Source: a virus
Lineage: Duplodnaviria > Caudoviricetes
Virus record (IMG/VR): IMGVR_UViG_3300046514_000337
Span: 1,423-65,422 of that record
Direction: 5' to 3' (one strand)
Length of the DNA: 64,000 bases
Shown here: one piece after another, positions 13,619-61,087 of the stretch
Layout of the letters: each line of letters starts with the position of its first letter
How positions within the stretch are numbered: the stretch's first letter is position 1
Made by a program: the position numbers and the translations under genes
The notes under the pieces: model-generated
Seen by the model: the letters and a program-made list of their open reading frames with translations, nothing else
What the model was told of the DNA's origin: nothing
The model's database searches: none

Positions 13619-13791
13619 GCTGTTTGCTCCTGATAATCTCGTTCGTCGTTGTCGGTGAACTGCTCGGCGATCAGAGACATGGAATGCGCCCACAGCACGG
13701 CCTTCTGGATAGAGCGCCGCGCCTCGGCATCTTCCAGTGCGGCGGCAAGGAGGTCCGTGAACCACTGATCTTGCTCCACCTGGTCGAGCAT
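13615..13791 (-). CDS. hypothetical protein
   Basis: MLDQVEQ..., coupled at both ends. Confidence 0.5.
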   Translation of the reverse strand: MLDQVEQDQWFTDLLAAALEDAEARRSIQKAVLWAHSMSLIAEQFTDNDERDYQEQTA

Positions 13792-20349: not shown

Positions 20350-20419
20350 CAGAGCACTCCTTCGGAGGTGCGGGGTGTAGCACGGGCGGAGAGGGGATGG
20401 GGAGATATCGGGCATTCAC

Positions 20420-28100: not shown

Positions 28101-28993
28101 GCCGGCCCCGATGGGTGCCCCGCAAGACGGCTCACAACAGCATGCCCCGCCGCAGGAATCGCCGTCGTCACCGCGGCGTTCAGCGCCGCTTCAGACATCC
28201 CCTCCGTGACCGGCTTACCCTGCTCGACGTTCTCCACACCGCGCTGCGCCACCGCTGCGCCGGGTTGAGCGACGAACGCCTGGAACAGAATGTCCTTCGC
28301 CGCCTGCTTGAACGGAGCCCAGCCGAACAGCGCCCACGATGCGCCCGTGAACGCGCCTTCCTGTCCGGCACGCAACAGCGCCCGATCGAAGGCACCGTTC
28401 GGATCGCCGCCCTTCGCCGTTTCCTCCGCAAGATACGGCGCGAGCGACTGAACCGCTGACACGCCGCCGGCACCCAGTGCAGCCCCTACCAACGGCCCGA
28501 CGGGTCCGGTCGCTTCGGATGTGGTCGCGCCAGCGAGGCCGCCAGCAATGCCTCCGACCAGCGATGGCATGCTCTTCGCCAGCCCGTAAGCGATCTTCGG
28601 CGCGGCGCGCGACGGCGACAGCAAATCGCCGAATGAAAGCGGCTCCGTGTAGTAGGGCTGCGCTTCCTTTGGTGTCGACGGCGCGGTGCCTGCCATTGCC
28701 GCGGGCGCCTGCGACAGTTCCCGAACAGCGCCAGCCACGCCCGAAACAGCGGCGCGCGGAATATCGGAGAGCGACGGCTGCGGCTCCTCCGGCGGTAGAT
28801 CCTCCGCCTTCGCCACAGGGAGCGCCGCGCGCGAGGGGCGACCGCTGCCCTGCTGCGCGTAAAGGTTCCACGGCCCTTGCGCTGGAACAGCAGACGCCGC
28901 TGGGGGCGCTTGCTGATACAACGTCCATGGTCCAGCCGCTGGCGCGATTGGTGCGGCGGTATCGTCCTGTGGGGTGCTATCGAGAGGGGGCAC
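22169..28993 (-). CDS. large polyvalent internal virion/ejection protein (2274 aa)
   Basis: Last gene of the ejection block; hydrophobic Gly-rich N-terminal region; central GPKIG..FYQNL.G...VAMDLW..R domain; HEAVH...EAIAE metallopeptidase; helical C-terminal domain. Confidence 0.8.
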   Translation of the reverse strand: MPPLDSTPQDDTAAPIAPAAGPWTLYQQAPPAASAVPAQGPWNLYAQQGSGRPSRAALPVAKAEDLPPEEPQPSLSDIPRAAVSGVAGAVRELSQAPAAMAGTAPSTPKEAQPYYTEPLSFGDLLSPSRAAPKIAYGLAKSMPSLVGGIAGGLAGATTSEATGPVGPLVGAALGAGGVSAVQSLAPYLAEETAKGGDPNGAFDRALLRAGQEGAFTGASWALFGWAPFKQAAKDILFQAFVAQPGAAVAQRGVENVEQGKPVTEGMSEAALNAAVTTAIPAAGHAVVSRLAGHPSGPAPSAETPPAVPRVRTPEEIENEDGIGPEAAQRVAATEAVKQPAAAAAAIQPVERADQAARTELEQTAQAVATPPEPKPMEATPPVASVPPATAPEAVPPDQRPAMEVRSTPAVKPPSRIEQAAWDYADRVYADAMEGGVGHLEAESASHEAFAEFMEGTADFPNVAMRQPSGYENTLSNLLAEYRRASESGAEPQQAAKHAVDAFEKGVGAFRPPRAANDASIGAIGRPDPGTSLLPFLIERGGLQPHGDLRAMDAHIARPGLVRKTGMQLDYAREAAAEAGFLPMDSTIGDFLDLVSRELKGQKQYGNHLPEQITPGVDVTGREEARREALTEDVRMAADDAGVQLGGATLDHAVQLAQYGMPVAQAIHEATRFGSNVEDVPFGRRLPVPPQSGAPLLGERSPQQIRQELTDADAAFRAGEPSYQQTLADYRSRKIGDDEYLTARKARDALMARYDRAYEAVQILPPERATAQTAEPTIRNDPRQLGLLGTEPSAVQAQAARDQAGPRGGQKPADEGLFAPKETEQNPLFGRRGFAGANPVGVRQQLERNLSSLDLLDPRYPAMPLRSVAVPTVGRQLMERGQSALRMLGIRSGKIEGPAPHTDELLSRSLASEAKAALQRAWGTGGSGFDWYTRKVRQAMAAATTIHPEIETDPNARMGFTAALAITSQGETVPLNVRLAEPAYAYFKENGRFPTDIKAKKAAAMNRNFAKLNALMDAHEQIAPGRGVDGLRDFLSRDFTVRELTAMGHKIGGENLDTAVKGSAILGPKIGQGFYQNLNGNYNPVAMDLWFMRTWGRLTGTLVGLSPEVVAKQQERLRTEMALNQMKVPQTTPGLLKEANRIFDAHEKHFNANREDYNSGKYTKSELVLAAERVVAGKDGLNETPKSGAQRQWIRERVARTRELLAQEGINLTNADLQAILWYPEKELYGKLGGRDSEGINVDYATAISDLARSKGVPEDAIARAVGSLDQRPGPGGEADVGRGDQGVRPEGGGVHEGAPEFGRREPTAADERPHPEAVRAAVETAQRIAGKSVRIETYDAAHDAFRVRFPDGHEEQVFGYTLGRLIRAAIEPERTAWNLNHEAVHALEALGVFKPGEMKALEAAAQRGNWAEQHRIAERYPEQTPQQQMREAIAEEFARYSTTPKATVPIIQRLGAKITQFFDRLRNALAGRGFRTAEDVFGAMQRGEIGAREPAAHAPSLAESQAAAQRFETAQGRRPAPEAQMGRREKELPLAAAAKDRLGFAKRVADEVKQLFSPTSRGPQAKSTEHLIRASSAERAQANARSTDALERFGHMIARLPEAEQLAITDRRERGEAQPTPELNQVIDALRQQQGQWAQKIRSLGPEYLKTLRENYMGHIWANYPEWKAGIEAEEAAAQARGEGIAQAQARGKSPLKGSGAFLKQRTFDTQREGMDAGLIPVTKNPIEMQLLKLYEMQRFYHGVKLAEDIKNSGLAHWVPYNDEGAARASGYAKLDDTAFQPRVTEPGEYGRKEYGNWWAPEQVARVFNNYVSRGLAGHSSIYDAVRGAGNALNSAQLSFSGFHATFIAFDTMMSKLALGIQQLSRGEPIRGLGTMAKGLSPTTIFSTVARGSALREAYLHPENASPEMRRLVQALVKGGGRIAMDPFYRSTAAGSFIKNMGDLKNPSGILHDAWQMAKDTPIAAPLRIVGRFIDTLNQPLMGVMVPRAKLGVFSELASDFLRRNPEATDEQFAAAMTKAWDSVDNRMGQLVYDNLFWNKVSKDLAFITTRSVGWNLGSVREIGGGGVDAVKAVGDMVRGRKPELTNRMAYVIAMPIITGMYGALLNYAMTGQGPQSLLDYFYPRTGSETQPGVPDRTTLPGYIKDVMAFKNDPLGTIGNKTQPLFETGIELGKNRDYYGGIINMPGVDNPMVSYPEYLLNQAIPFSWRGWLKTWEAGASSLTQALNFFGIQPAPQSITNPQRGEAYQQRQDIRALRARMKENAKGRITMGAPP

Positions 28994-28996
28994 TGC

Positions 28997-31900
28997 CTAC
29001 GGCCCCGCTGGCGCCCACGAAGTCTGCACGCTCGGATCGCCGCCGAGGAACTTGAAGCCCTGCACCACATCGCCGACTTTCGGTGCAGGTGGCGGCGCCG
29101 GAGCACCGCTCGGCTGGTTCAGTCCACGCGCCGTCTCCCCTGCCGCATGTGCCTGTGCCGGCGTCAGTTGCGGTTTGCCCATCAGGTCTTTGTAGTTTTC
29201 TTTCAGGTCCTGATCGGTCATCCGCAAGATGCGATCCTGCTCAGCCTTGTCCTTTGCCTGAGCTAATGCGGCCTTCCGTAGTGCGATATTCTGTGCTGCC
29301 ACGTCGCTGCGCGCCGCCTGATCCGGCTTCATGTTGATCGGCTGATCGCCCGATTTCATCGTGCCGGTGCGAGTGTCCATGAACAGCGGCATTCCCTGCC
29401 CATCTGTCCCGACGTAACTGAAGTGCCCGTTTTCAGCCCGCGTCGATGCTGCCTGCGCTGCGAGGTGCGCAGCATACGCTTGATCGCGCGCCGCCATTGA
29501 CTGAACGCGCTGCCCGTAGATGTCCGTGCGGTTCTCCGCATTGTGCGCCATCTGCTGCCGATACTGATCCAACTCCTGCTGCTTGAGCTGGTTGTATTCC
29601 AACTGCTGCTGCCGTAGCTTCTGGTTCTGCGCCCAGGTCAGCCCCTCGAGCGCGCCGTGGCCAATGTTGACGCTGGCATACGGTGACGACCCGCTCAGAA
29701 TACCGAGTCCCGCCGCCATCAGCGCCGCGCCCGGCGTTTGCGTCCAGTCTCCGGTGCCATGCGTACTCGGCGGCCCAAGCGCTCCGTGCGGGGCCGGCGC
29801 GGCTTCCTGCGCATCCTGCGCTGCCGTCACCTGATGCGCTGGTGGAGGCCCAAGCGCCCCATTGCCCGCCGCAGCAGGGCCGCCCGCAACGCTCGTGCCC
29901 ATCGGCTGCGTTATGTCGATGCCTGGCATTGCCGCTTGCAGCGCCTTGACTGTGCGCGGGTCCCATCGCTGCACCGGGATAATGTCGGCTACCATCGTCT
30001 GCGTGTCTTTATCAGCATCGTCAGCGGTGGGGTATTTGCGCAGATCGACGCCAGCCTTCGGGGCGAAATCGCGCCAGGTGCCGTCTGTAATCTGGTAGAA
30101 GCCGCGAGCGCGGCCCGAACTTGTCATGGGACCAGCGCCGTGCTCGCGGCCTGAATTTTCGGCAGCCCCAGTAACATCATGCACGATGTCGAGCGGCCCA
30201 CGGGGCGCACCCAGTACGTTGCCAGCCGAGGCGCCTGGCATCATTAGCGGAGCCTGCGGCGGCCCGAGGGCAGTGGCAGGTTGAGGAGCCGACGGCGGAA
30301 ACATCCTTGCCCCAGAGTAGGTATCCGGCACGGAGTTTGGATTGCGCAACCCGGCGGTTTCGCTCGCAATGTCAAAGTGCGCAGGCAAGTCTAAGGCTGC
30401 ATCAGGCATCGACTCCGGTGGGGGGGCCTGCATATGCTGCCACGCACCGCGAGCACGGCTACCAACCGCTCCCAACGCGCGCGCCATCGGACTGTCCGGT
30501 GCAATGAAAGGCTCCGCTCCAGCATCGCTCGGCCCACCGTAATCGTCATCTGCGACGCCACCGCTCGCCATCCCCATACCCGGCAAGCCGCCCAGCCCCT
30601 GCATCATCGGCTGAGGCTGCTGCGCGAGCGCCGGATCGCTCTGCGGCATCATCTGGCGCCGCCGCAGCACCGCCTGCACCAGCCCGCCCTGCTGCGAGCC
30701 AGGCGGTACACGCGCCTGCAACTCGCGCAGCTTCTCCGTCGGCATCGAGGACAGTTGGTTCAGCGCGTTCCCGTACATCGGGTTGCCAGAGCCGAGCCCC
30801 GCCTGCGATACCGGCGACAGGCCCGGCGTCGGCCCGAGGGCTAGCGGCAGCGCACCGCCGTCGTCGTAGCCGATCGGGCCGCCGAGTGCGCGATGTGGGA
30901 TGCGTCCGCCGCGAGCGCCGCCAGTATAGTACCACCCGGTATCCGCAGCACCCGTCGCACCCGCAAGGCCGGTGTCTATTGCGTTGCCGCCAGAGCCACC
31001 GAACCAGTTCCCCATCCCGTTAAACGCACCGCTGTTGTACAGCCCCAGCCCTGTCAGCCCGAGCCCCGCGGCCTGGCTAGCGATCGATGGCCCCGGCGTC
31101 GTCGTACTGCCCGAACTACCCGCGCCGTCCGCACCCGTCGCCAGCCCCAACTCGAAATTGCTGATCTGATACGGGAACGCCTGCGCCTGCTGAAACTGCT
31201 GATACGGCACGTTCAGTTGCTGCTGCGCCAGCCCCTGCATCTGGTTGCCGATGCCCAACTGCGCATTGGCCCCGCTCAGCCCGAGGCCCTGCGCCTCCTG
31301 CCCCAGGTTCGCCATCCCGAACGCGCCCTGCGACGCCAGCCACGCATTCGCCTCCTGCGAGGACAGCCCCGTGCCGAGCGCGCTCTGATAGGCAGCTTGT
31401 CCTATGTTTCCGAGTTGCCCGAGTGAACCGGCCGCGCCCAGCCCCAACTGCGCATTGGTCGTGCCAGTCTGCATCGCCGCGCCGAGCGCCTGCCCGTAGC
31501 CAGACTGCAGCACGTTCGCGAGCGAAGCATTGTTGGCGAGATCCTGTTGACCCGCGAGCGTCGATTGCGCGATGGCCGCCCGGTCGCCGCCGAACGCGCC
31601 AGCACCGACAGCCGAGCCAACAAGTTGCTGCTGCTGGATGGCATCGTTTTGCTTTTGCAGCGCTTGCAGCGAGGACGTGACGTTCTGCGTGTACGGCGAC
31701 ATGAAATTCTGCACGCCGAACTGGCCGCCGAGCGGATTCATGCCCTGCCCAGCCGTAGTCGCGAACTGCGATGCCGGCCCTAAGTAGCCTTGCAGTGCCG
31801 GATTGGAATACTGTCCTACGGTGGACGCCGGGTTGACGCCGGAGGTGCTCGCGTTAATGAGGTTCGCGGCTTGGCCTAGGTATGGCTGCGCGAGGCTAGA

Positions 31901-32155
31901 GGCGGCGTTGATGTTTCCAAATGCCGCCTGTTGCTCGGGGTTGAAGCCAGCAACGAGGGGGCTGTTGTACGTGGGATATGGAGCCTGAGCTACGTTAGTC
32001 CCGGTGTTAATGGCTGTCTGGTACGCTGCCTGGGCAAGTGGGTTCGGCGTCGTCGTCTGGGTGACAGTCGAGTTATTGCCACCACCCTTACTTCCAAACA
32101 GGAGAATAGAAGCGCGGTCTAGATATCTCGCAAAGCCTGTGTTACTCTGGCTCAT
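28997..32155 (-). CDS. ejection (DNA transfer/pilot) protein with lysozyme/transglycosylase-like domain
   Basis: GSKGGG..TVTQTT N-terminus; Q/G/A-rich; AENSG...ARGFYQITDGTW motif. Confidence 0.75.
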   Translation of the reverse strand: MSQSNTGFARYLDRASILLFGSKGGGNNSTVTQTTTPNPLAQAAYQTAINTGTNVAQAPYPTYNSPLVAGFNPEQQAAFGNINAASSLAQPYLGQAANLINASTSGVNPASTVGQYSNPALQGYLGPASQFATTAGQGMNPLGGQFGVQNFMSPYTQNVTSSLQALQKQNDAIQQQQLVGSAVGAGAFGGDRAAIAQSTLAGQQDLANNASLANVLQSGYGQALGAAMQTGTTNAQLGLGAAGSLGQLGNIGQAAYQSALGTGLSSQEANAWLASQGAFGMANLGQEAQGLGLSGANAQLGIGNQMQGLAQQQLNVPYQQFQQAQAFPYQISNFELGLATGADGAGSSGSTTTPGPSIASQAAGLGLTGLGLYNSGAFNGMGNWFGGSGGNAIDTGLAGATGAADTGWYYTGGARGGRIPHRALGGPIGYDDGGALPLALGPTPGLSPVSQAGLGSGNPMYGNALNQLSSMPTEKLRELQARVPPGSQQGGLVQAVLRRRQMMPQSDPALAQQPQPMMQGLGGLPGMGMASGGVADDDYGGPSDAGAEPFIAPDSPMARALGAVGSRARGAWQHMQAPPPESMPDAALDLPAHFDIASETAGLRNPNSVPDTYSGARMFPPSAPQPATALGPPQAPLMMPGASAGNVLGAPRGPLDIVHDVTGAAENSGREHGAGPMTSSGRARGFYQITDGTWRDFAPKAGVDLRKYPTADDADKDTQTMVADIIPVQRWDPRTVKALQAAMPGIDITQPMGTSVAGGPAAAGNGALGPPPAHQVTAAQDAQEAAPAPHGALGPPSTHGTGDWTQTPGAALMAAGLGILSGSSPYASVNIGHGALEGLTWAQNQKLRQQQLEYNQLKQQELDQYRQQMAHNAENRTDIYGQRVQSMAARDQAYAAHLAAQAASTRAENGHFSYVGTDGQGMPLFMDTRTGTMKSGDQPINMKPDQAARSDVAAQNIALRKAALAQAKDKAEQDRILRMTDQDLKENYKDLMGKPQLTPAQAHAAGETARGLNQPSGAPAPPPAPKVGDVVQGFKFLGGDPSVQTSWAPAGP

Positions 32156-35229: not shown

Positions 35230-35682
35230 TTATTTTAGATACCATATCGTCGCCACGACCGACGCGCTGCCCCATGCCGCCGAGGCCACGTAAACGGTCT
35301 GCGGAGCCGTCCACGCCTGGAGCAGGAACGCGCTCACCGGCACGATCGAGTTGGCCGCCACGGCCGTCGCACCCAGGATCTGTGCCCCACCCGGTGACGT
35401 GCCGAGCGACACGCTGACGTTGTGTCCCGCCGTCTCGCGCAGCGTCACGGCGATAATGATGGCGTTGGCCGGGATCGTGTCGAGCGCCCCGTTCGCGCCG
35501 AACGCGCCAGATGCTTTGTCGATCGGGGAGTTCGCCTCGTCGATTGCGGCATCGGCCGCAAAGGAGCGCTCGATCTGCGCCATGGCGTTGTTGAACGTAC
35601 TGGCGTCTACCTGCGGCCCGCGGGCACGCGGATATGGCGGTGCCGAAAGAATGCCGCTTCTACCTTTGACACTCCCGCTCAT
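35230..35682 (-). CDS. tail-associated hypothetical protein
   Basis: Coupled to the tail tubular gene; C-terminal beta sandwich. Confidence 0.6.
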   Translation of the reverse strand: MSGSVKGRSGILSAPPYPRARGPQVDASTFNNAMAQIERSFAADAAIDEANSPIDKASGAFGANGALDTIPANAIIIAVTLRETAGHNVSVSLGTSPGGAQILGATAVAANSIVPVSAFLLQAWTAPQTVYVASAAWGSASVVATIWYLK

Positions 35683-37247
35683 CGGCGGCCGTCAGAAGCG
35701 ACGCGGATGCGCGTGCGGCCGAGGCGCCACGGGAGCGTGCTCCCATTATTTGAGAAACGAAAGGCGATTTGGCGGCCCCGCATGCGGAAATTCACGTTTC
35801 CGACCGCGGGGTTGAACGCATACGGCCCATATGCAGTCGGGGGGTTAACCGTCGGATAATCGGAACCGTAAACCGTAACCTGCCCGCTAGTGCTCGCGCC
35901 AATCTGATCTGCGATGAGCCAATCAACGAACGAGAAATTTTCGCCGTTGGACATGTCCATAAACCCACTCGAAAGCGTCCATGGCAGAGCCAAAGGGAAT
36001 GAGCCGAGGGCTAACTCAAACGGCGCTCCTGTTTCTTGCTTCCAGACCTTACCCGCATCGTCAACACCGATCGGATACCCAAGCGTGGGGACGAAATCCG
36101 TCATAGCATTGCGCCCAACCGAAGGGCTGCTGATTGACGTTCCGTAGCCCCATGTGCCATTCAGCACATTGTACGAAACGTAGGTGTCGCAAGCAGTGCT
36201 GCTGGGATTAGAGGGGAAATCCCACCGGATCTCCTGGTATTTGCTGTTCGTGGATGCCGATACTGCAGTCGCCGCTATCGAGTTTGGCAGCACGGTATCA
36301 ATGCAGAACTGCCTAATTGGGCATACAAGCGGACGAACAACACCGTCGTAAGAGAAAAACTCGCCGTTGGAAGACCACCAAAACGCCTGTCCACCCAGCG
36401 TTGCTGCAGCCAGCGGCCCGATGCTTCCGCAGCCCGTGCCAAGTTGCTGGAACCCGTAAATCAAATTTCCGCCTTCAAACTGCATCGAATAAAGAGCCGA
36501 GTCCGTCAGCGGCAACAACTGTCCCTGCGCCGGTAGGATCGTCATAATCTGCGAACCCTGCGTCAGTCGGAAGCTGCCGGCCGCATTCGTCGCCAGCGGA
36601 ACCCAGGATGTGTAATCGCTGTAGTCAGTCCATGCGATGAGCATAGGGTCCTGAACGCCTGTCCATCCCGCCGCTGCTCCGTCTTTGTTCACACCCCACG
36701 CAATCAACTGCTGCGCTGGGCTCGACACGACGCAGCCGTTACAGTTCAGTGGAGCACCGCTTATTGCGGCTGCCGGGAGGTAGGCATTCGTCGGAGGCCA
36801 CGCATAGATCGTGGTGCCTGGCGTTGTGCCACTGAGCCTGCGCACAGCGACAAGATTTTGGCCGAAGTTATCAATGGCCCACGACGCGACGCCAGCAACA
36901 TAACCAGCGGGAGTGATATCGTGCGCTGTCGTGTAATCGAAAGCATAGAGTTTGCTCGACGTACCTATGGCGAGAAGCGGCGTAATCGTACCCGCTGTTA
37001 TCGCGCCCGGTAGCGGCGACCATGCATGCAATCCACGCGGAGACCCCGCTACGCTCGTAAACTGTCCCCACCCGCCGATTACCTCTGGCAGGCCCTGCGC
37101 ATCGGCGGGAAATCGTATGAGACTCGAACTAGGAGTGAAACCCACGGCACTATCGTATTGCTGACCAAGGAACCATCCGGTCTCCAGCACAAGCGGCGTA
37201 ACCTGACTGAAAAGACCGGGGTGGAATTTGAGGCTTTCGAATGGCAT
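35679..37247 (-). CDS. tail tubular/nozzle protein (P22 gp10 / T7 gp12-like)
   Basis: Beta-propeller-like repeats; DNFGQNLV; RMRGRQIAFR...WRLG..R...DGRR end; synteny. Confidence 0.75.
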   Translation of the reverse strand: MPFESLKFHPGLFSQVTPLVLETGWFLGQQYDSAVGFTPSSSLIRFPADAQGLPEVIGGWGQFTSVAGSPRGLHAWSPLPGAITAGTITPLLAIGTSSKLYAFDYTTAHDITPAGYVAGVASWAIDNFGQNLVAVRRLSGTTPGTTIYAWPPTNAYLPAAAISGAPLNCNGCVVSSPAQQLIAWGVNKDGAAAGWTGVQDPMLIAWTDYSDYTSWVPLATNAAGSFRLTQGSQIMTILPAQGQLLPLTDSALYSMQFEGGNLIYGFQQLGTGCGSIGPLAAATLGGQAFWWSSNGEFFSYDGVVRPLVCPIRQFCIDTVLPNSIAATAVSASTNSKYQEIRWDFPSNPSSTACDTYVSYNVLNGTWGYGTSISSPSVGRNAMTDFVPTLGYPIGVDDAGKVWKQETGAPFELALGSFPLALPWTLSSGFMDMSNGENFSFVDWLIADQIGASTSGQVTVYGSDYPTVNPPTAYGPYAFNPAVGNVNFRMRGRQIAFRFSNNGSTLPWRLGRTRIRVASDGRR

Positions 37248-37988: not shown

Positions 37989-38162
37989 ATGGACGAAGAC
38001 AGGTTTGTGGTTGCCGGGTGCCATGAGTGTGGCGACCGCGCGTATCATGCAGCGGCGGACGTTGAGCGCGGCCTGCGGTGCAGCAACTGTGACGCCCCGC
38101 TGGTAGCGTTGCTCGATGTGACCCTGGACGAGATTGCGCCATACACATGGGCATCTAGTTAG
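37989..38162 (+). CDS. small Zn-ribbon protein, antisense insertion
   Basis: SD GGAGGAG; CHEC...CSNC. Confidence 0.55.
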   Translation: MDEDRFVVAGCHECGDRAYHAAADVERGLRCSNCDAPLVALLDVTLDEIAPYTWASS

Positions 38163-41103
38163 CCGCCATAATTTGCCAATTTACGCCGTCAGACTGGAGC
38201 GTACAGTATTTCCCGGCGGTTGCCGCTAGGATCGCCGTGCCGGCTGCTCCACCCGCCAGAGGCACCACATTAGTAGTCGCGCTCGCAACCGCATGTGCAG
38301 CAATCAACTTCAGGTTCAGGATGCGGCCGAAATACGATGCAGCCGCGAGAAGCGTGAGGGTGAGATCGCCGCTCGGATTGAGAACCAGCGAGAAGTCAGC
38401 CTCCGTCTGAGTGTACGTCGTATTCGTAACCGGCCTATTCGTCGCCGCGATGCCTCCCGCCGAATGCACGCCATGCGCGTCTATGGAAGCCGCTACCCCC
38501 ATGACAACAGAGCCGCGCGCTGCGGTCGAGCCGTTTACCGGCGTGGAGAACGTGACGCCAGGAAAGACTGTGTAGCCAGAGCCAGCAAGAGTAACGGCGA
38601 CGCCGGTTCCGTCCTTCCTCACGCCCCACGCCAGCGGGCTTATGACGAGGCCCGTGCCAGAGCCGCCGGTGGTTGTCGTAGCCCCGACGGGGGGATAAAC
38701 AGAGTAGCTCCCAGGCGTAAGTCCGGTGAATGAGGTAACGCCGCCCGCGCCATCCACGCTGGCCACTCTCAACTGCGCCGCAGTACTATGGGTACCGCCG
38801 ACGAGCGTAGGGATGTCGCCGACCACGTATCCAGTGCCCGGCGTGATGATATGCTGATCGCTCAGCCACTGCATCGCTGTGACCGTTGCGGTGGCGCTTA
38901 CGCCAGCAGAGGCGTCAATCGCGACCGTTGGGTAATCGGGATTAGTGTAGTTCCCAAATACGTTGACCGTGATCGAGGCCACGGTGCCATCAGACGCGCT
39001 GATAGCCCCTATGGATTGGATGCCCGCACTAACCTGCAGCGTCCCGGCAACGCTTGCGTTGTTTTGCTCCATTATGTTGTAGGAAAATAACTCCGGCCCC
39101 CCAGCCCCGATTATCACAACAAAACCAGTCATATCTGCGGGGGTATTATTTGACCAACGCTGCTTGATGCCCTCGGGACCAAGCACAATGCCGGAAAAAG
39201 TCACGTTGGTTGGGTTGCTAAAGTACTCAGCGGTCGTGCTGTTGAAGGCGACATTGATCAGCGTACTGAACATCCGTACGTTGACGATGCCAGGCTGCGA
39301 GGTGTCGAACAACTGTTCCGTGATGGCACATGCCGCGTCGCTGAACTCAAACCGGCTGAACTGAGGCGTGCCATAGCCACTCGTCGGCCCCTTGCGGAAC
39401 GATACCACATGCCGGGCCTGCTCGACGTGACACATCTTCGCCTGCAAACCAGCTGTGACACCGCAAAGTGCCGAAACGATAATAACGAAAACATCCTGTT
39501 GGCAGAAGAAATACGAGTTGCTGTAGTCATGGTCAGCGCCACCGAGCATCCACACGCCGCACCCGTTCGGATGGTGGTTGATTATGGATAGCTGGCCGGG
39601 GTTGCCGCCTTGGAAGGGTTGCGCGTGGTCTTTCGTTGCAGCGTTGGTGATGTACTTCGACGTGACATTCCAGAAGCTGCTGTTGCACGTATCCACAATC
39701 CGGCAATAGGGCGCGTTGAAACCGCCTCGGACTAGACCAATGTCGGTAGCCTCGGAACAGAACGAATAATCAAAGCCTGCATCCGCGAACGTGCCCTCGA
39801 TAATGAGCTGATCGAAGGTGTTCGCCGGCGCAACTATAGTGTTGGAGACGCGGCCATATTGGTAGGACCAGCGCGGGATGAATGTTGCGTCTCCGGTAAT
39901 TGTCAGGTTGATGTTGGCGACAGCGGCCGAGCCAAGTTCGTCAAATACCGGCAATCCCGCCGCCGCCGAATAGATCTTTGCGCGCTGCCCGTCAATGGTG
40001 AGGCGCGACAAGCCCGTAAAGTTCAAGCTATCCAGAACAAGATAGTCACCGCCAAAGGCGAACACCAACTTGCCATAGATCGCATTGCGGCCCGACGCGT
40101 CAGGTACCGATTGCGCGCGCATCGCTGCCGAAGCGGCGTTGATCGCTGGCGCGTTGTCGGTGCCGATGACCACGGTGGGTGCCGTCCACGATACGTTGAA
40201 CGTAACTCCGGTGCCTGGGCCAGTCGCACTTACGGGGTTCGCGGGAACGGCAGAGTAACCGCCCGGCACGGTCACGGCGGCAATTGACCCAGGCTGGCCC
40301 TGGATTTGAACGTTGTTCGCACCCATAACGATAGCAACGGTCGCGCCGACAAGGCCGCTGACGCCGCCGACATCGACAATCGGCTCGGCCGCTAAGTTGG
40401 GCGGATTGGCCTGATAGATGCCGGGAGTTGTCGGGGTAGCAACGACGCTCGCAAGCACGCCGCCCGTGATCGTGCCGGTGAAGCGAAACTGGGTTGCGGC
40501 TGGCGACGTGCCGATGAAGGTATAAACCCCGTCGATGCCTCCGGTGCCGTTAGTATTGCGCGCTACAGTGTTGACCTTCGTCGTCTGCACCGTCACCTGG
40601 GCAGGCACCACAAAAGTCCCACCAAGCAGCGTGTAAACGTCGAGGGGACTGACGCCGGTGCCGGCGGCAGCGATTGTGGGATTGCCGGTCGCCTGGAAAG
40701 CAACGCCTGACAGCGCTGTTGTCGCGGCGCCAGAGAGCGTGATCTGGCTGGCCAAAGCATTTACCGAAACGACGGGAGCAAGAAGCCCCGTGCCCCCCGG
40801 GCCGCCAAGAGGCAGGATCGCGATTTGGCCAGGAACGACGGTGCTTACGTCGGCGCCCGCGATCGTAAGCACCGAACCGCCAGCGTCAATGGACAGCGTG
40901 CCAGAGTACTGCTTGCGATCGCCCTTCGCACCGTAGGTGCTGACGGAAAACTCCGTCGCGCCGCCGAGCATGTCGGCCAACGAGTACCGCAGCACCGGAG
41001 CCGTGGCAGAACCTGATGTGGCGGCCAGGAATTGCTCCAGCCCCGTCATCGGTCGCGAGCCGAGAGGCGTGTTGTTCCATAGGTTCGGGTAGGCGCCGCT
41101 CAT
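38155..41103 (-). CDS. tailspike / receptor-binding protein (beta-helix)
   Basis: VSTYGAKGD...GTDNAPAINAA (split pectate-lyase-3-type motif); repeated GTGY..GD modules; no signal peptide. Confidence 0.8.
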   Translation of the reverse strand: MSGAYPNLWNNTPLGSRPMTGLEQFLAATSGSATAPVLRYSLADMLGGATEFSVSTYGAKGDRKQYSGTLSIDAGGSVLTIAGADVSTVVPGQIAILPLGGPGGTGLLAPVVSVNALASQITLSGAATTALSGVAFQATGNPTIAAAGTGVSPLDVYTLLGGTFVVPAQVTVQTTKVNTVARNTNGTGGIDGVYTFIGTSPAATQFRFTGTITGGVLASVVATPTTPGIYQANPPNLAAEPIVDVGGVSGLVGATVAIVMGANNVQIQGQPGSIAAVTVPGGYSAVPANPVSATGPGTGVTFNVSWTAPTVVIGTDNAPAINAASAAMRAQSVPDASGRNAIYGKLVFAFGGDYLVLDSLNFTGLSRLTIDGQRAKIYSAAAGLPVFDELGSAAVANINLTITGDATFIPRWSYQYGRVSNTIVAPANTFDQLIIEGTFADAGFDYSFCSEATDIGLVRGGFNAPYCRIVDTCNSSFWNVTSKYITNAATKDHAQPFQGGNPGQLSIINHHPNGCGVWMLGGADHDYSNSYFFCQQDVFVIIVSALCGVTAGLQAKMCHVEQARHVVSFRKGPTSGYGTPQFSRFEFSDAACAITEQLFDTSQPGIVNVRMFSTLINVAFNSTTAEYFSNPTNVTFSGIVLGPEGIKQRWSNNTPADMTGFVVIIGAGGPELFSYNIMEQNNASVAGTLQVSAGIQSIGAISASDGTVASITVNVFGNYTNPDYPTVAIDASAGVSATATVTAMQWLSDQHIITPGTGYVVGDIPTLVGGTHSTAAQLRVASVDGAGGVTSFTGLTPGSYSVYPPVGATTTTGGSGTGLVISPLAWGVRKDGTGVAVTLAGSGYTVFPGVTFSTPVNGSTAARGSVVMGVAASIDAHGVHSAGGIAATNRPVTNTTYTQTEADFSLVLNPSGDLTLTLLAAASYFGRILNLKLIAAHAVASATTNVVPLAGGAAGTAILAATAGKYCTLQSDGVNWQIMAAN

Positions 41104-41113
41104 CTGACGTCCT

Positions 41114-41503
41114 TCATGGCGGGATCACGCGCTCAGGTGTGTTCGCACCGATCTGCGGCGCAATCGCATTGATGACTGAGCTATCGTTCCTTCGGATGAT
41201 CGCCCCGTTGTTATCAGTCAGCACGTAAATTTGCATCGGAGGCCCGATGTCCAAATCCGGTCGCGGATTCCAGATCGGCAGCGGATCGGGGGGCGGAACG
41301 TATGTGCGAAGCTGCGCCTGCGGGATATCGAGGCAACCCGGGCACACGAGAATGCGCAGATTCGCCAGTTGGGCGCCGCGCCAGTCGTACTGCCAAGTCA
41401 GCCGACTGTGGTTGTACCACAGGCCGCATCTATCGCAGCATCCAAACGCGCGGGGCCTGCGCGATGATATCTGAACTCGACCTCGGGCTTGGACGAACGC
41501 CAT
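41114..41503 (-). CDS. Cys-rich phage neck/tail protein
   Basis: CDRCG...QYDWRG...ILVCPGCLDIPQAQL...DPLPIWNPRPD. Confidence 0.7.
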   Translation of the reverse strand: MAFVQARGRVQISSRRPRAFGCCDRCGLWYNHSRLTWQYDWRGAQLANLRILVCPGCLDIPQAQLRTYVPPPDPLPIWNPRPDLDIGPPMQIYVLTDNNGAIIRRNDSSVINAIAPQIGANTPERVIPP

Positions 41504-41748
41504 CAGGGTTTAGCCGCTCCCTTCGCGGCTGCCAGTTCGTCCTGCGCCTTCTTCAACTCGGCGGTGAGCTGTTGGATTTTCACCTGCGCGTCCATGAGCG
41601 ACACCTTGGCGCTCAGGCACGCCATTGCCTCCTGGCCGATCACCTGGGCGGCGAACGGCGAGGTCTGCGTATCCTGCGCCGCGCATGGCGCTACTGCCAA
41701 GACCGCCAGACCCACAGCCGCCAACAGTGCGCGCATGATCTTTCCCAT
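41503..41748 (-). CDS. small secreted coiled-coil protein
   Basis: MRALLAAVGLAVLAVAPCAAQ signal; heptads. Confidence 0.65.
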   Translation of the reverse strand: MGKIMRALLAAVGLAVLAVAPCAAQDTQTSPFAAQVIGQEAMACLSAKVSLMDAQVKIQQLTAELKKAQDELAAAKGAAKP

Positions 41749-43133
41749 CAGCAGTGCGTCACGATGCCGCCGACGCTGGCGAAGCTGATGGTCGGGGCAC
41801 CAGAGCACGACACGCCGGCGGTTGCCCCGGAACTAAAGACGCCGGTTGCGGAAATCGCGGCCTTCGTCACGCCGGCCACCTGGTAGAGCAGCGACGTGCT
41901 GCCGGTGTCGTAAAGCAGCGTATTCCGCGCCGCTGGGGATAGCGTTGTGTCGTCGCCGTTGAACTCGATTGCCTGCCCCGCGTCCATATTCAAACCAAAC
42001 ACCGGGGCACTTGAGCCCGTCGGCGCAATCGCACCACGCGCATCGTAGGCACTATAAGTCTGCGTGCTTTTTGCGAACCCGAAAGCGCTTCCGAAATTAG
42101 TATGATCGTCGTGAGTGATGCTGCCAGCGGGATCAGTCGTCGAAAGCCAAACTCCTAGGCCGATCTGGGTCTGAGTAGTGTCTGTGGTAATTTGCCGAAT
42201 GCCCGCCAGATGTATCCCGCTGCGGATACCCGCGCCGCCAATCCAGGAAGGGTTGGTGGCATCGTCGGCCTTGTTGGTGCTCACATCTAATTCCAAGGCG
42301 TTAAGTAATGCGTTCCCGGTCGAAGACGTTACATCAGTCAGATCAAGAGCCGACGAAATACTGCCCTTGATCCACGCATTCGATCCGACGTTGCGGATGC
42401 CTGTAAAAAAACCACCGAGGCAAAACCCCGAGACCGTCGAATTGCTCGTGCATTTCCCGACGATGTTCCACTCATTGCTGCCATCAGTGGCTGCAGCAGT
42501 GGTTTCGACGCCAAGCGCCCGCACGATATTGGCGAGTGTACCGCCGCCAGTGGTAACGCGCAGAATACGGAACGCCGAGTAGTCTGCCGGTTGCGCCGCG
42601 TTCATGTTGAAGATCAGGCCGCCGCCCGTGGGAAGAAACAGCCCCGGCAGGCCGCCGACCGTGGTGAGTGGCCCTAGCGCCTTCCCAATCGCCGTGCCAA
42701 ACCCGGTGATCGTCGTGCCAGCGACCGTCAAATTCCCGGTGCTCGAAAGCGTCGTGAATGCGCCAGCACCCGGCGTTACCCCACCGATCGCTGCGCCATC
42801 AATGGTGCCGCCAGTGAACGCAACCCCTCCGCTCAAAAGGGTGGCGAACGTCCCGGTAGTGGCACCGAGCGTCGTGAACAGCCCCGTGTTTGGTATCACG
42901 TTGCCAATCGGAGGCGGCGTGCTCCATGGAACCGCCCCACCCCCCACCGCCGCCTGGATCTGCGAAATCGTGAATTTGACGGTGTTGCCGCTCTGGCCAC
43001 CAAGCACAAGGTCGTTGGCGCCTGGCGTCGTGCCGGCGGTGCAACTGTAGGGGAGGACGCCAGTGCAGCTTGCCTGGGCAGCCAGCGGGCTGGCGAAGGC
43101 GGCGGCGAGGCCGAGCCAGAAGAGCGGTTTCAT
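41748..43133 (-). CDS. tail-fibre-like protein with Sec signal peptide
   Basis: MKPLFWLGLAAAFASPLAAQA; TPPPIG..PNTG.FTTL and IDGAAIGGVTP.AGAFTTL fibre repeats; ends GVSC...GGIVTHC. Confidence 0.75.
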   Translation of the reverse strand: MKPLFWLGLAAAFASPLAAQASCTGVLPYSCTAGTTPGANDLVLGGQSGNTVKFTISQIQAAVGGGAVPWSTPPPIGNVIPNTGLFTTLGATTGTFATLLSGGVAFTGGTIDGAAIGGVTPGAGAFTTLSSTGNLTVAGTTITGFGTAIGKALGPLTTVGGLPGLFLPTGGGLIFNMNAAQPADYSAFRILRVTTGGGTLANIVRALGVETTAAATDGSNEWNIVGKCTSNSTVSGFCLGGFFTGIRNVGSNAWIKGSISSALDLTDVTSSTGNALLNALELDVSTNKADDATNPSWIGGAGIRSGIHLAGIRQITTDTTQTQIGLGVWLSTTDPAGSITHDDHTNFGSAFGFAKSTQTYSAYDARGAIAPTGSSAPVFGLNMDAGQAIEFNGDDTTLSPAARNTLLYDTGSTSLLYQVAGVTKAAISATGVFSSGATAGVSCSGAPTISFASVGGIVTHC

Positions 43134-43134
43134 G

Positions 43135-43899
43135 TTAGCGATCATAATAACTGGCCAAGCCGGGGGCAATGTAGATGGACACAACCTCCCTTTCCGCGAT
43201 CCGCGCTCGCTGGTAGCTTGCAGCGGCCTTTGCTGTCAGCGCGGCGGACATTTCCGGCGCATAGGTGTAGGAAAGCTCGACCGCCAGCGCGTCTACGTAG
43301 GCCATCAACCAACGAGCGGGTATCGCTACCTGTGTGCCACCTGCCAGCGTTGCATCCTGCGACTTTTTAAACCGCCAGTAGAAAAGAACGTATGGTCCAT
43401 TCCGGTCCGGCACGGGATAGAGATGGATGACAGGCGATATGAGCCGGTCAAACCAATAAGTTGTGGTAGGAGCCTGCAAGAACGGGTTCGGGTATGACGC
43501 AAACTCGCTACGCCCAACCGGAAAGATCACCCGATTGTTTGCGAACTGCGTGCTGCCGTTCGCCATCAGCGCGCCGCTCTCGTCCACCAGCGGAACGCCT
43601 ACATTGTCCGTCAGAAAGCCGGATGCCTGGGTCTGCACATAGGCATCGGCAACCATGATCGTATCCGGCGGGCACTGCACAATCTGCTGCCCCTGAGCCA
43701 GCGGGGCCGTTTGCAGGTCCACATCCCACAGCAGGGGCTGGTCAGTACTCCAATCGCTAAGTATCAGGTTTGCCGCCATATAGGCGTCGGCCAGATGCTC
43801 CTGAAGGACGGCAGTGCGGCGCACCTTCACGCGGCCAAGCGCGTAAACCGCGAGGCCGCCGAGCGCCGGATTGAAGGTGGTGGTGCCGGTGGTAGTGAT
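43135..43899 (-). CDS. head-tail connector-like protein (probable ATC start)
   Basis: The frame extends 23 codons upstream of the tracked GTG to an ATC behind GGAGG; ANLILSDWS...LW, YWFDRLISP..LYPVPD. Confidence 0.7.
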   Translation of the reverse strand: MTTTGTTTFNPALGGLAVYALGRVKVRRTAVLQEHLADAYMAANLILSDWSTDQPLLWDVDLQTAPLAQGQQIVQCPPDTIMVADAYVQTQASGFLTDNVGVPLVDESGALMANGSTQFANNRVIFPVGRSEFASYPNPFLQAPTTTYWFDRLISPVIHLYPVPDRNGPYVLFYWRFKKSQDATLAGGTQVAIPARWLMAYVDALAVELSYTYAPEMSAALTAKAAASYQRARIAEREVVSIYIAPGLASYYDR

Positions 43900-53851: not shown

Positions 53852-54106
53852 TCAAGCTCGTGCATCCCAAAACCAATAACGACGGTTGCCATCGCGGGCA
53901 TACATCAGATTCGAGAGCCAATCGCCCTCAAACCATGTTTGAACGCCATCAGCGCGTCGCTTAATGTCCAATTCCTTCCGGGGATGAAGCTCCGCCAGAA
54001 GATCGCGGCCGTTCACATGGCTGAAACTGGCATGTACAAGCGCATCAAAGCGCTTTTGCTTCTCGTCCGCCGACAGAGCCAGTAATTCAGCTTTGGTAGC
54101 CATCAT
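53852..54106 (-). CDS. hypothetical protein
   Basis: MMATKAELL..., coupled to the portal stop. Confidence 0.5.
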   Translation of the reverse strand: MMATKAELLALSADEKQKRFDALVHASFSHVNGRDLLAELHPRKELDIKRRADGVQTWFEGDWLSNLMYARDGNRRYWFWDARA

Positions 54107-56526
54107 TATGGCCCTCCCCCCGGTTGAGGTCGCGTTGCCAGTCCAGCCGCAGCAACAGCGTGGTCGTCCGCGTGCGCAACCATCTCGTGCTGTAGCCTCA
54201 ATCTCTCCGTCTGCTCGCGCGTCATATCGATCTCGGTCTTCGCCGCACGATCCGCCGCACGGTCCTGGCTCTCGACCATCGCCTCGTGCGCCCGCAACTG
54301 CTGATCGGCCCCAACCGCCGACCCTTCCGCCGCCGTCTTCTGCGTCTGCGCCCCCAGCAGCGGCACCTTCGCATCGGCCTCCTTCGCCCGCGCCTGCGCC
54401 GTCGCAATCGACGCCTGCGCCTGCATCATCTTCGCCTGCGTCGCCTGCGGATCCGGTGGCTTCGCGCCGGCCCCACCAGCCGCCGCTGCCTGCTGCGCCT
54501 GGAACGCCTCGAACTCCTCCTGCGTGTTCAGAAGCGAGTCCGTGCTCGTGACACCCATGCCGCGCAGAACCCACTCCGCCGTAGGCACCACCTTGAACAC
54601 CCCCGGCGGTGTCTGCAGCGCCATCTGGAACACCGCCATCCGCTGCATCACCCGATGCAACATCGACGGCGTATTCGGATCAGCCGCCGGCACCAGATCG
54701 TAATCGTCCAGCGCCGCCAGCAGCGTAGCCTCATCCCACTGACGCGCCGGCTTCTTATTGTGACGCCAAAACGCCTCCGGGTCCTCACGCAACCGCTCGG
54801 CAATCAGCCCAAACTCCTCCGCCTGCGCCGCATGCAGCCGCTTAAACACCGCACCCGTCAGCTTCGTCGCCTCGATGATGTTCGCCATCACCGTCCCGAC
54901 CGGAGCGTTCTGCACACCCTCGCCCGTCGGTACATTCGGCCGCGACCCCACCCGAGCCGCCGCCTGCGCCACATTGTCCAGCAGCGACAACCCCGCAGGC
55001 TGCGGCCCCTTGTACGGCAGCGGCGAGATCATGTTCCCGATGGGCTGCCCACCAGTCTGAATCGGAACACCGGCCCCAGGCGCAACCCGGAAGATGTTCG
55101 TCAGTTGCTTCCCCAGCACATCCACATACAAAAAGCCCGGGAAGTTGGAAAACATCATCGAATCGAGCATCAGCCGCCATCCGGCCGTCAGTGCCATCGT
55201 CGTATTGCCGAGGATGTGCATCAGCCCGATGCCGTAAAAACTAAGGACCGGCGCAAACGAATACTTCACAAACGTCCGCCGAGCCGCAAAGTCCTTGTCG
55301 CCAGGCATCCAGTCGCGCCGAATCTCGAACACCTGTCGACTGTCCCGGTCCATCGATACCTTGTACGGGCGCGGCACCCGGATTTCGCCGTCGTCCGTAA
55401 ACCCGCCACCGTTCCCCGGCGCCCCATCATCCAACCCACGGATATTCAGTTTCGTATAGCACTCCCAGACCGTGTGCGGCTTGTCTTCAGGACGCTGCGC
55501 GCTGCGATCATACCCCTGCGCCTCAGCCACAGCCTCCTGCACAGGATTCTGCACATACAGGGGCTGGCTAATCCGCCCCTCCGCGTATACCCCCGCTTCC
55601 ATCAGCTTCAGGATATCGTCCTTCAGCTTCTCCATTTCGTGCGTTACTCGCGGCGCATTCGCCGTGTCAGTCACACCAGCATCGACAATCAGATCCTTGG
55701 AACTGATGCTCTCGCTCACCGGACGACGCCGCAGTGGGCAGTTGAACACCTTCTTAAACGCACATCCCAGCAACCCAACCACGAACGCCATCTGGTCAGT
55801 ATCTGGGTAATACTCCGTCGCCGTATTCGTCAGAAAGTGGTTCAGGTCCTTCTCGAGATCCGCCGCCAGCTCATCGCCCATATCCAGGGCTGGGCCGCCG
55901 TTGTGCCCCATCCCGGCTTCGTTCGCCGCCATAACAGCCTGAACCGCCGTATCCACGTTCTCCGGCGCGATCACACCAGCCGTCGCCATCGCCTGCACAG
56001 CGAACCGAACAACCTCCTCCGGCACCCCACTCGGAGCCGTGGCGTCGTTCCGCACCTTTACCGGACCATCCGCCGGCAGCATCTCACCCCTGAAATCCGA
56101 CTGAAACCCAAGACACGCCTCGAGCAGCAGCGGATGCCGAACCGTGCTCATCCCCTCCAGAGGCGCACCACTCCCACCCGCATCGCTCCGCGGCGGCTCC
56201 AACCGCAGCCCAAGCATCCGAATGGCCTCGGCCGTCATCTCCATCACCCCGCGCCGGCTGGCGATGTCCGCCGTCACCCCGCGCCAGACCTCATCCCCGA
56301 TCCGCGCCACCTCGTTCTGGTCCAGCACGTCCACCAGGTTCGCGAAGTGCTTCCCGTTCCCCGCACGCTTCGCCGGTCGCCACTCTTCCTCGGGCAGTTC
56401 GTCGATCGAGTTGTCGTCGTTGAGGATCAGCAGGCCGCCGGTATCGGGGTTGACCGTCCCCTCGCGCCCGTCCGGGGCGGTACCGTACTCGGTGTCCTCA
56501 CGGGGGCGGAGGTTTACGACGACCAT
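54106..56526 (-). CDS. portal protein (P22-like podoviral)
   Basis: HFANL, STVRHPLL.EA...FQ, G.AFKKV, FYGIGL.HILG, APVGT; Q/A-rich C-terminal barrel. Confidence 0.9.
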   Translation of the reverse strand: MVVVNLRPREDTEYGTAPDGREGTVNPDTGGLLILNDDNSIDELPEEEWRPAKRAGNGKHFANLVDVLDQNEVARIGDEVWRGVTADIASRRGVMEMTAEAIRMLGLRLEPPRSDAGGSGAPLEGMSTVRHPLLLEACLGFQSDFRGEMLPADGPVKVRNDATAPSGVPEEVVRFAVQAMATAGVIAPENVDTAVQAVMAANEAGMGHNGGPALDMGDELAADLEKDLNHFLTNTATEYYPDTDQMAFVVGLLGCAFKKVFNCPLRRRPVSESISSKDLIVDAGVTDTANAPRVTHEMEKLKDDILKLMEAGVYAEGRISQPLYVQNPVQEAVAEAQGYDRSAQRPEDKPHTVWECYTKLNIRGLDDGAPGNGGGFTDDGEIRVPRPYKVSMDRDSRQVFEIRRDWMPGDKDFAARRTFVKYSFAPVLSFYGIGLMHILGNTTMALTAGWRLMLDSMMFSNFPGFLYVDVLGKQLTNIFRVAPGAGVPIQTGGQPIGNMISPLPYKGPQPAGLSLLDNVAQAAARVGSRPNVPTGEGVQNAPVGTVMANIIEATKLTGAVFKRLHAAQAEEFGLIAERLREDPEAFWRHNKKPARQWDEATLLAALDDYDLVPAADPNTPSMLHRVMQRMAVFQMALQTPPGVFKVVPTAEWVLRGMGVTSTDSLLNTQEEFEAFQAQQAAAAGGAGAKPPDPQATQAKMMQAQASIATAQARAKEADAKVPLLGAQTQKTAAEGSAVGADQQLRAHEAMVESQDRAADRAAKTEIDMTREQTERLRLQHEMVAHADDHAVAAAGLATRPQPGGGP

Positions 56527-58102
56527 CAGGCCGCCACCTCATACATCGTGTCCGTTACCGTCACCAGATGCCCAACGGCGGGTTTCCACTTAACAAAACC
56601 GCAGTCCAAAGCGTGGCGGAAGCCAGCCTCAGTCGCAACGAGTTCTATGCGGCCATCCGCAGCGTCGCGCGCCTCACACAACCCGGCGTCAATCAACTCC
56701 ATAACAGACGATAAACTACCCGCGTCAACCTTCCACCGGCCTAGCACCACGGCCTCCTGCAGTATCGCCACATGGTGACGACGAAGGGGTTCGACGCCGA
56801 TCATAAACCCGCCAGTTACCACACCACAGCCGAGATGTCACCCAATCCGTTCAGACGCTCACCACGCCTCACGCTCCAGTAGATCCTCGTGCCACCAGTT
56901 CTCCAACCATGGGTCCAAAATAAAACCGGCAGCCGCCACTTCTTCCGCCGTCACCCAGCCGTCAAGGATCGCCTCCCGGAAAATAACCGGGCGGTTCAGA
57001 AGATAAGCACGCAGAAACTTCCGACGGACAGATCGCTCAGCGTCAGTCGCATCGGGGGGAAGGCACAGTTGAATACCCACCGACCGCGCCAATTCTGCGG
57101 CCAGATGCGATTCTTGCCAGACGCCCATCACTCAATCTCCAACTCCGCCGCGTGCAGCCGCCCCAGCCGCCGCCCCACCCCCGCCACATTCGGCGACGGA
57201 AGCCACTCGTCCGTCCGCAGCGGGCCAGCACGAACCATGTCCCCCGTGATCCGCCCGTAGATCCCACGCCCCGCCTCGATCATCGCATCCTGCTGCGCCA
57301 TCCGCCCCTCAGCCGCCCACTTCTGTCGCACGTAGGCCGCCTCCGTCTCCCGCGCTACCTCCGCCATCCGCTCACGCCACGCCGCCAAATCCTCCCGATA
57401 CTGGCGAGCAAACATACGGGCGCGAGCGGGGTTCATGCCAAAGCAGGCTTCAGAGCATCAATCGCCGCCCGCGCGGCCGCGTCCTCCACGCCCGCCTCCC
57501 AACGCGTGTAGATCAACCCATACTTCCCGCAATTGCCGCACCCATTCACGCAGGCAATGCTCGTCCCCTCGTGAACCTCACTCTCCCACCCGCATTGGCG
57601 ACACGAGAAAACAGTGCGGTTTTCGCGCCCAGTGCGCATCACCCCAACCCCTCCATCAACTTCCCAACACACTCAGGCACCGGATACACATCCCCCAAGT
57701 CAAACAACTCCGCCACCAGCCGATCCCGCTCCGCCAAATCCACACCTCCCACCATCTCGCCCCTCCTCACACGCCGCACCAACTCATACGACCAGCCCCC
57801 AGCAACGGGCAGCGCACGTACATGATCCACAATCCACAACTCCCCACCAATCTTCGTCACATACCGATGCCGCCGAAATACCAACTCCCCACCCGCCGGA
57901 GGCAACCACGCCAAGGGTAGAGCGTGCTTCACGCTTCATCCCATGGCAACTCGCCCATCGGGATAGGATCAATCTCGCAATCCCCATACGTTACCCGAGG
58001 CCGACAGCGACCACTCCACTCGCTCTCGCCAACCAGACGAGCCGGCTCACTCACCCGCGTTACATCCTCCCACACTCGTTCACCCGGGGTCATGCCGCCT
58101 AG
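56526..58102 (-). CDS. cluster of small hypothetical ORFs between TerL and portal (56526-56822, 56859-57131, 57128-57436, 57433-57672, 57639-57932)
   Basis: Mostly coupled; 57433-57672 has two CxxC pairs. Confidence 0.55.
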
Positions 58103-60911: not shown

Positions 60912-61087
60912 TGGCAGTTGGTGCTCACCGGACGCGCCGGCGTGTAACTGCCATATGCTCCCATCATCCCGAGCCCGGTTTGAATCAACAGCTGGTTCGT
61001 CGCCGGGGTGCCGTAGCTATAGCCGCCCTGCGCGCCGGGCCCACACGCCGCTACCGCCAGCGTCGCCGCAAGGACCATCCACCGCAT
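60875..61087 (-). CDS. small lipoprotein
   Basis: MRWMVLAATLAVAA-C lipobox; C-terminal Cys pair. Confidence 0.65.
   Translation of the reverse strand: MRWMVLAATLAVAACGPGAQGGYSYGTPATNQLLIQTGLGMMGAYGSYTPARPVSTNCHWMAGQWMCQTW

Follow-up and report, generated by a model that had tools for sequence, protein, structure and literature searches.

Why should a tail-fibre-like protein of a tailed phage begin with a secretion signal, when in the textbook view the parts of such phages are made and joined in the cytoplasm? The question is raised by two adjoining genes of a short-tailed phage, in a stretch of 64,000 nucleotides (the window) out of the 65,422 bases of a single-contig IMG/VR virus record, IMGVR_UViG_3300046514_000337. 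One encodes a tail-fibre-type protein of 461 amino acids (41748-43133, minus strand) and the other a small protein of 81 amino acids (41503-41748, minus strand), and both have signal-like N-termini. A preliminary description had placed the pair inside the core neck/tail operon and had taken this position as a mark of true virion parts assembled after export. Sequence comparisons strongly indicate that the large protein is a tail-fibre-type receptor-binding protein in which a Sec signal peptide has taken the place of the usual N-terminal particle anchor, and that the pair is a mobile accessory host-recognition cassette rather than part of the core neck and tail. As to function, we tentatively favour, with a little less than even confidence, an exported accessory receptor-binding protein that would mask or modify the receptor glycan both on the infected cell and on the debris it leaves.

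The assignment of the larger protein to the tail-fibre type is based on its sequence features, its homologues and a weak PHROG match. Its gene starts with the ATG at position 43133, 1 nt past the TAA that ends the adaptor-like gene (231 aa) upstream. At the N-terminus, MKPLFWLGLAAAFASPLAAQA is followed by SC, with Lys2, an uncharged hydrophobic run (LFWLGLAAAFASPLAA) and then A-Q-A ahead of S, which gives a predicted signal of residues 1-21. Behind the signal come a cysteine loop (23-31), a DLVLGGQ..GNTVK motif, two IG..P..G.FTTL repeats (residues 76-89 and 116-129), a tip region at about residues 140-440 and a C-terminal cysteine pair; the chain ends in GGIVTHC. The repeats and the GGIVT end had been picked out in the preliminary description and are borne out here, and both repeats are covered by phrog_892, 'tail fiber protein', in a weak match (E 0.005). 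The cysteine pairs that had been reported at both termini are real (23/31 and 443/461), and a further, internal pair lies at 228/238, making three local pairs by position. The Pfam and PHROG scans otherwise gave nothing usable for either protein and recognised no known N-terminal particle anchor in the fibre protein, and a tblastn search with the latter against 50,697 phage records found no match.

Signal calls were made with a crude heuristic of our own rather than SignalP, and conservation was weighted above scores. Both proteins have the charged n-region, the h-region of about 10-16 residues and the small residues at -3 and -1 that characterise Sec/SPI signals. The h-region of the fibre protein is moderately hydrophobic (mean Kyte-Doolittle value 1.74 over 15 residues). 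Signal-like N-termini were found in all seven aligned fibre homologues (7/7), and they keep the n/h/c design while their sequences diverge. In five aligned proteins, the window fibre and its homologues P0004, P0034, P0054 and P0020, a cysteine loop comes right after AxA, in the pattern AxA, one residue, Cys, 7-12 residues, Cys and then a D[LI]VLGG-type motif. The strict form of the heuristic flags 8 of the 67 gene-like open reading frames (ORFs) of the window, and no core head or tail protein is among them. The preliminary description had allowed for a true start downstream of the hydrophobic segment. This does not hold, as no ATG, GTG or TTG occurs between the hydrophobic run and the conserved cysteine loop of the fibre; the signal segment is therefore translated, because every possible start includes it and the downstream cysteine loop is conserved. 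A signal-less isoform beginning at GTG codon 43 was considered and seems unlikely, as no Shine-Dalgarno-like sequence lies ahead of that GTG.

The gene for the small protein follows directly, its ATG overlapping the TGA of the fibre gene (TGATG) and its own TGA overlapping the ATG of the next gene. Its N-terminus, MGKIMRALLAAVGLAVLAVAPCAA followed by QD, contains K3 and R6, a hydrophobic run (ALLAAVGLAVLAVAP) and then C-A-A ahead of Q. The signal spans about residues 1-24, leaving a mature part of some 57 residues that is helical, rich in Ala, Gln and Lys, and ends in AAKP. The Sec-type signals that had been noted on the fibre protein and on this small protein are thus both upheld by the heuristic, and the two proteins are very probably exported. 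A spanin or an Lpp-like lipoprotein was also considered for the small protein and rejected, as it has no lipobox and no partner gene; no lipobox ORF was found embedded in or beside 41503-41748, and no spanin PHROG at E <= 1. The lipobox consensus is [LVI][ASTVI][GAS]C, and the residues at this place are Q-A-S-C in the fibre and V-A-P-C in the small protein, so that neither conforms to it. A match of the small protein to I/LWEQ (22.7 bits against a cut-off of 27.5 bits) was set aside as coiled-coil noise.

To place the fibre among its relatives, a profile of eight sequences was compared with 1.84 billion representatives. At E <= 1e-3 the search returned 514 representatives, 91 of which passed E <= 1e-30, and the part that they have in common is a domain of about 300 amino acids corresponding to query residues ~140-440. 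This tip domain has no Pfam, PHROG or PDB relative, and its profile gave 0 matches at E <= 1 against PDB sequences. Signal-less proteins carry it as well, among them P0013, P0027, P0023, P0038 and P0016, with E values of 1e-77 to 1e-104 against the profile. Ten signal-less members were scanned. Pfam matches (E <= 0.01) were obtained in six, to collagen repeats, pectate-lyase-like domains or Peptidase_S74, and PHROG matches also in six; five of these were to families of tail fibres, tails or tail spikes, and the sixth (P0064) matched a family of unknown function only. Eight family members begin with a 'YTxTPxLxLxKP' N-terminus that is the same as that of the fibre of the kin phage L008, and which, judged by position only, we took to be a particle anchor. 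From the collagen, pectate-lyase and S74 parts, the tail PHROGs and the kin-type N-terminus of the signal-less members, the domain can be considered a genuine tail-fibre tip module. Whereas the signal-less fibres and spikes join this tip to an N-terminal anchor, collagen or spike modules, the window fibre joins it to a signal; the kin-type N-terminus is absent and the signal stands in its place.

N-terminal classes were counted among 137 stored representatives of at least 250 amino acids, taken from the 150 best hits and earlier hits; 15 shorter or fragmentary rows were left out, as were P0007 and P0009, which match the repeats only. By the heuristic, a signal was present in 42, a collagen-like N-terminus in 12, the YTxTPxLxLxKP type in eight and another N-terminus in 75. 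The preliminary description had asked whether orthologues keep the signal; 42 of the 137 full-length representatives carry one, as do all seven aligned homologues. A cysteine within the last six residues was found in 15/42 of the signal class and 3/95 of the others (Fisher p = 1e-6), and an even, non-zero number of cysteines in 33/42 and 46/95 respectively (p = 0.0013). The proportions with two or more cysteines were 35/42 and 75/95 (p = 0.65), and total cysteine density differed weakly (Mann-Whitney p = 0.039). The arrangement AxA plus X-Cys-loop-Cys occurs in 7 of the 42. Export into an oxidising compartment would be expected to go with just such an exchange of the anchor for a signal and a gain of terminal cysteine pairs. 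The ten signal-class members that were checked are cluster singletons on metagenome contigs of 1.7-19 kb.

Is the pair, then, part of the core neck and tail? Six IMG/VR contigs, L007-L012, share with the window a capsid protein at 87.5% identity and an adaptor at 61%, and four of them (L007, L008, L009 and L010) extend past the adaptor gene. In L008, L009 and L010 the signal-bearing pair is absent, and the tblastn match to the adaptor is followed, 6 nt past its end, by the start of a Zn-ribbon gene. The junction between adaptor and Zn-ribbon genes is occupied in L007 by a gene for a 201-aa HNH-type homing-endonuclease-like protein on the opposite strand (9144-9749, minus strand; motifs recognised by eye). 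As this gene and the window pair sit at the same junction, the junction accepts insertions. Because the pair is absent there in L008-L010, it does not belong to the core neck and tail, and the inference that had been drawn from its position is not supported; no conserved tail-module place of the pair exists in these close kin.

A second context is provided by another IMG/VR contig, L001. At E <= 1e-5 only two of its ORFs match the window, those for the tailspike (62-64% identity) and the fibre (50% identity). Their order differs from that in the window: the tailspike comes first, the signal-bearing fibre second, and behind it lies an 85-aa protein that has a signal and a helical part and ends in AAAKPKD. 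BLASTP found no similarity between this 85-aa protein and the 81-aa protein of the window, and the two are positional and compositional analogues only. The L001 fibre lacks a shaft and an anchor, its tip domain beginning very soon after the signal. The pair lies in the tail module in both known contexts, and the travelling unit consists of the tailspike, the exported tip protein and the small exported protein. This is how host-recognition modules typically behave, as do exclusion genes whose distribution follows that of a receptor-binding gene. Absence or presence among collinear kin, together with occurrence in an unrelated backbone, is the pattern of an accessory cassette.

Further contexts were sought with three queries. 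No relatives were found in genome contigs, and no new genomic context in viral contigs, where the window fibre as query returned L001 and weak, repeat-only matches in L002 and L003. A degenerate DNA pattern for GFGTAIG..LGP gave nothing in viral contigs and elsewhere chance hits only, which were rejected: L005, a membrane protein, in genomes, and L006, a porin, in metagenomes.

The pair is read together with the late genes, and the fibre protein is made late, because its gene is translationally coupled to its neighbours in the late operon. One weak sigma-70-like promoter match, TTGCCC-17-TATGAT (9/12), was found at 43141-43169 (minus strand), within the end of the adaptor gene and just upstream of the fibre ATG. 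In the region as a whole, four sigma-70-like sites were observed against 2.2 +/- 1.3 in shuffled sequences, which is not significant, and no terminator was found at the end of the pair. The GC3 of the pair, 0.70, equals that of the neighbouring genes. It therefore has neither the promoter and terminator of its own nor the deviating base composition of a moron.

The genome also encodes a GcrA-like regulator (PF07750, E 7e-14; 1249-1821, minus strand), an N6/N4 DNA methylase (2859-4055, minus strand) and a RecT recombinase (8124-9179, plus strand). From the general occurrence of GcrA, we presume that the host is alphaproteobacterial and hence diderm; because the genome carries the GcrA-like gene, a diderm host is likely. 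No integrase was found among the scanned ORFs, which include a sample of the left arm of the genome.

These observations can be combined into the reading that we favour. The fibre protein would be exported through Sec and cleaved after AQA, and the mature protein, once in the periplasm, would fold and form three local disulfides. A small exported helical protein follows the fibre in both known contexts and may help or tether it. The fibre tip, located in the envelope, would bind, and possibly cut, the same glycan or receptor that tip-bearing fibres recognise from outside. Masking or modification of receptors on the infected cell and on debris would then lead to superinfection exclusion and spare the progeny dead-end adsorption. 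T5 Llp acts on FhuA in the same way, with superinfection exclusion and protection of the progeny. Llp, Cor of phi80 and N15, and Lom of lambda are all exported, are encoded beside a receptor-binding gene and act on the phage's own receptor or on the envelope. They are small lipoproteins or outer-membrane proteins and not fibre-like, whereas neither window protein has a canonical lipobox. An accessory role is favoured because kin do without the pair, because the L001 form has no part by which it could dock and because the phage has a signal-less spike of its own.

Several points weigh against this reading. The AlphaFold2 (AF2) models are of low confidence, with a pLDDT of 39.8 for the full-length fibre (8 alignment rows) and of 65.4, with a pTM of 0.46, for the tip domain (71 alignment rows), so that no fold could be assigned; Foldseek found no match to the predicted fibre models at E <= 0.001 in the PDB or BFVD. 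Sec reaches the periplasm only, and no route from there to the cell surface is evident. Lacking a convincing promoter and terminator and matching its neighbours in GC3, the pair resembles a late structural gene and not a classic moron. Shaft repeats are retained in the window fibre, although a protein acting simply as a decoy would have no use for them. The genomic context of signal-bearing homologues is known for L001 only. Finally, Cellulophaga phage phi18:3 encodes signal-bearing proteins whose annotation describes them as structural proteins detected by tandem mass spectrometry (MS/MS).

This last point leads to the alternative that survives best, a virion fibre matured in the periplasm, which we regard as doubtful though still a serious contender. 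The protein would be exported, would acquire its disulfides with the help of the small protein, and would dock on finished particles once holin lesions have connected the cytoplasm with the periplasm, or after lysis. Its tip domain is the same as that of true fibres, it retains the shaft repeats in the window, its gene is tightly coupled to late structural genes, and the pair is located in the tail module wherever its context is known. In the cultured phage phi18:3 (KC821620), gp085, gp086 and gp087 carry the GenBank note 'structural protein, annotation based on experimental MS/MS proteomics analysis'. These proteins, and gp079-gp083 of phage phi46:3 (KC821622), are large, are encoded in a row in the late region and have classic signal-like N-termini. 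They differ from the window fibre in that tblastn found no sequence relation to it, and their host is one of the Bacteroidota. MS/MS of a virion preparation can detect co-purifying envelope proteins, and the phi18:3 structural notes, which are known from the GenBank annotation alone, could be explained in this way.

Relatives of the window phage bear on the same alternative. The C-terminus of a 2274-aa giant protein of the window, described below, was used to find 47 kin loci. In 30 of these, one or more downstream ORFs were flagged by the heuristic, many of them small membrane proteins. By our judgement, convincing large signal-bearing ORFs (about 300-775 aa) lie right after the ejection-protein gene in seven of the 47 (L017, L019, L028, L043, L046, L051 and L062), at GC contents of 0.36-0.61 and with four such ORFs in a row in L028. 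No tip domain was found in the 47 loci, and MW202675, the closest GenBank relative, has no signal-bearing ORFs in the block after the ejection gene. Against docking on the particle stand the absence of the pair at the same position in the closest kin, the L001 form without shaft or anchor, the signal-less tailspike that the phage already has, and the lack of a recognised docking domain. In addition, our literature search found no paper describing Sec-exported tail fibres of tailed phages or such an assembly route. The wider proposition, that tailed phages of diderm hosts route some of their recognition fibres through Sec, to be folded in the periplasm with disulfides and a small exported partner and to dock on cytoplasm-built particles only after holin lesions or lysis have merged the compartments, in about one third of the 514-member family and with the window pair as a portable unit, seems to us possible but rather unlikely.

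Two published systems offer partial parallels. The passages of Caulton et al. (2024; PMC10769870) drawn on here describe the MAT fibres of Bdellovibrio bacteriovorus as Sec-signal-bearing, phage-tail-fibre-like trimeric adhesins with varied tips and, in some cases, disulphides. Foldseek matches between these and the window fibre were not significant (E 1.6-2.4). Phages of Porphyromonas gingivalis encode genes with SPI-type signals and of unknown function, for which modification of the outer membrane has been proposed (PMC10367356); the passages of that paper drawn on here do not describe them as fibre-like or as belonging to a tail module.

What the window offers, whatever the eventual function, is a well-defined tip-domain family in which a secretion signal has time and again taken the place of the particle anchor, accompanied by corresponding gains of paired cysteines, as well as a portable unit of two genes that travels with a tailspike. 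An exported tip that masks or modifies receptors would be a new kind of phage-made decoy, one derived from the recognition module of the phage itself; incorporation into the particle would amount to a new assembly route. Both readings bear on the prediction of host range from fibre genes and on fibre engineering.

A third explanation is that the tip is a depolymerase or lyase, exported late as an egress enzyme that loosens capsule, exopolysaccharide (EPS) or lipopolysaccharide (LPS) from within and so lets the progeny escape. Acidic and basic positions of the tip are near-invariant across 71 members (D129, E146, D155, R169 and others, in tip numbering), although such residues may be structural rather than catalytic. 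Look-alikes in the ESM Atlas are unnamed clusters and phage hyaluronidase clusters at 0.83-0.85; these scores are a lead only, as they fall under the level that the tool calls evidence, and the tip domain has no Pfam, PHROG or PDB profile match. The same genome encodes a protein with a twin-arginine (Tat) signal and motifs that look GH16-like by eye. On balance we consider this explanation improbable. That the proteins are not exported at all, the hydrophobic N-terminus being an uncleaved membrane anchor or due to chance and the fibre assembling in the cytoplasm like any other, is very improbable: the moderate h-region and the heuristic nature of the signal call would allow it, but homologues keep the n/h/c design despite sequence divergence, the AxA site lies immediately ahead of the conserved cysteine loop, and cysteine pairing is enriched in the signal class.

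The genes around the pair are those of a late region. The upstream adaptor-like protein (231 aa; 43135-43830, minus strand) has no signal and matches PF24175 SU10_adaptor at E 2.9e-5 and 25 bits (cut-off 27) as well as phrog_12985. The portal (54106-56526) was assigned by phrog_1216, with an SU10_portal match under its cut-off, and the large terminase (58099-59793) by phrog_38 (E 9e-78). Downstream of the pair lies the gene for the Zn-ribbon-like CxxC...CxxC protein of 129 aa (41114-41503, minus strand), which in the kin comes directly after the adaptor gene. Proteins of this type, of 118-129 aa and 50-55% identity, are kept beside the adaptor gene in this group of phages (in L008 at 9652-10008) and may be a tail or neck component.

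Next comes the tailspike-like protein of 982 aa (38155-41103, minus strand), which is 62-64% identical to L001:33-2927 and for which the Pfam scan gave no family. The preliminary description had noted that it carries no signal, and indeed its N-terminus is not hydrophobic. By eye, its first ~50 residues look like the beginning of a separate 88-aa protein encoded at the corresponding place in L008 (10008-10274), which suggests that a spike body may have been grafted onto a conserved N-terminal anchor. Further on are a nozzle or 'stabilisation' protein (35679-37247; phrog_3287, E 1e-53), whose tblastn matches are annotated 'phage stabilization protein', and an ejection protein of 1052 aa (28997-32155, minus strand). 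The 2274-aa giant protein belongs to no recognised family and was taken to be a putative second ejection protein. In the two together (22169-32155, minus strand) there is not one cysteine in 3326 residues.

After the giant protein, six consecutive genes (16588-22119, minus strand) all have signal-like N-termini, and no Pfam or PHROG families were found among them. The cysteine counts of four Sec-type proteins in this run are 4, 2, 4 and 6, leaving out the 365-aa protein at 20420-21517. The last of the six (16588-17514) has one cysteine, a twin-arginine-type leader and WPAFWA and EFDAME motifs; these are the motifs that look GH16-like by eye. A 150-aa ORF at 35230-35682 gave a weak Rz-like match (E 5e-4) and has no membrane anchor. 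Two proteins with lipoprotein-like N-termini (...LTAC and ...VAAC; 13247-13765 and 60875-61117, minus strand) and one with a transmembrane segment and a coiled coil (15343-15618, minus strand) are possible lysis or spanin genes.

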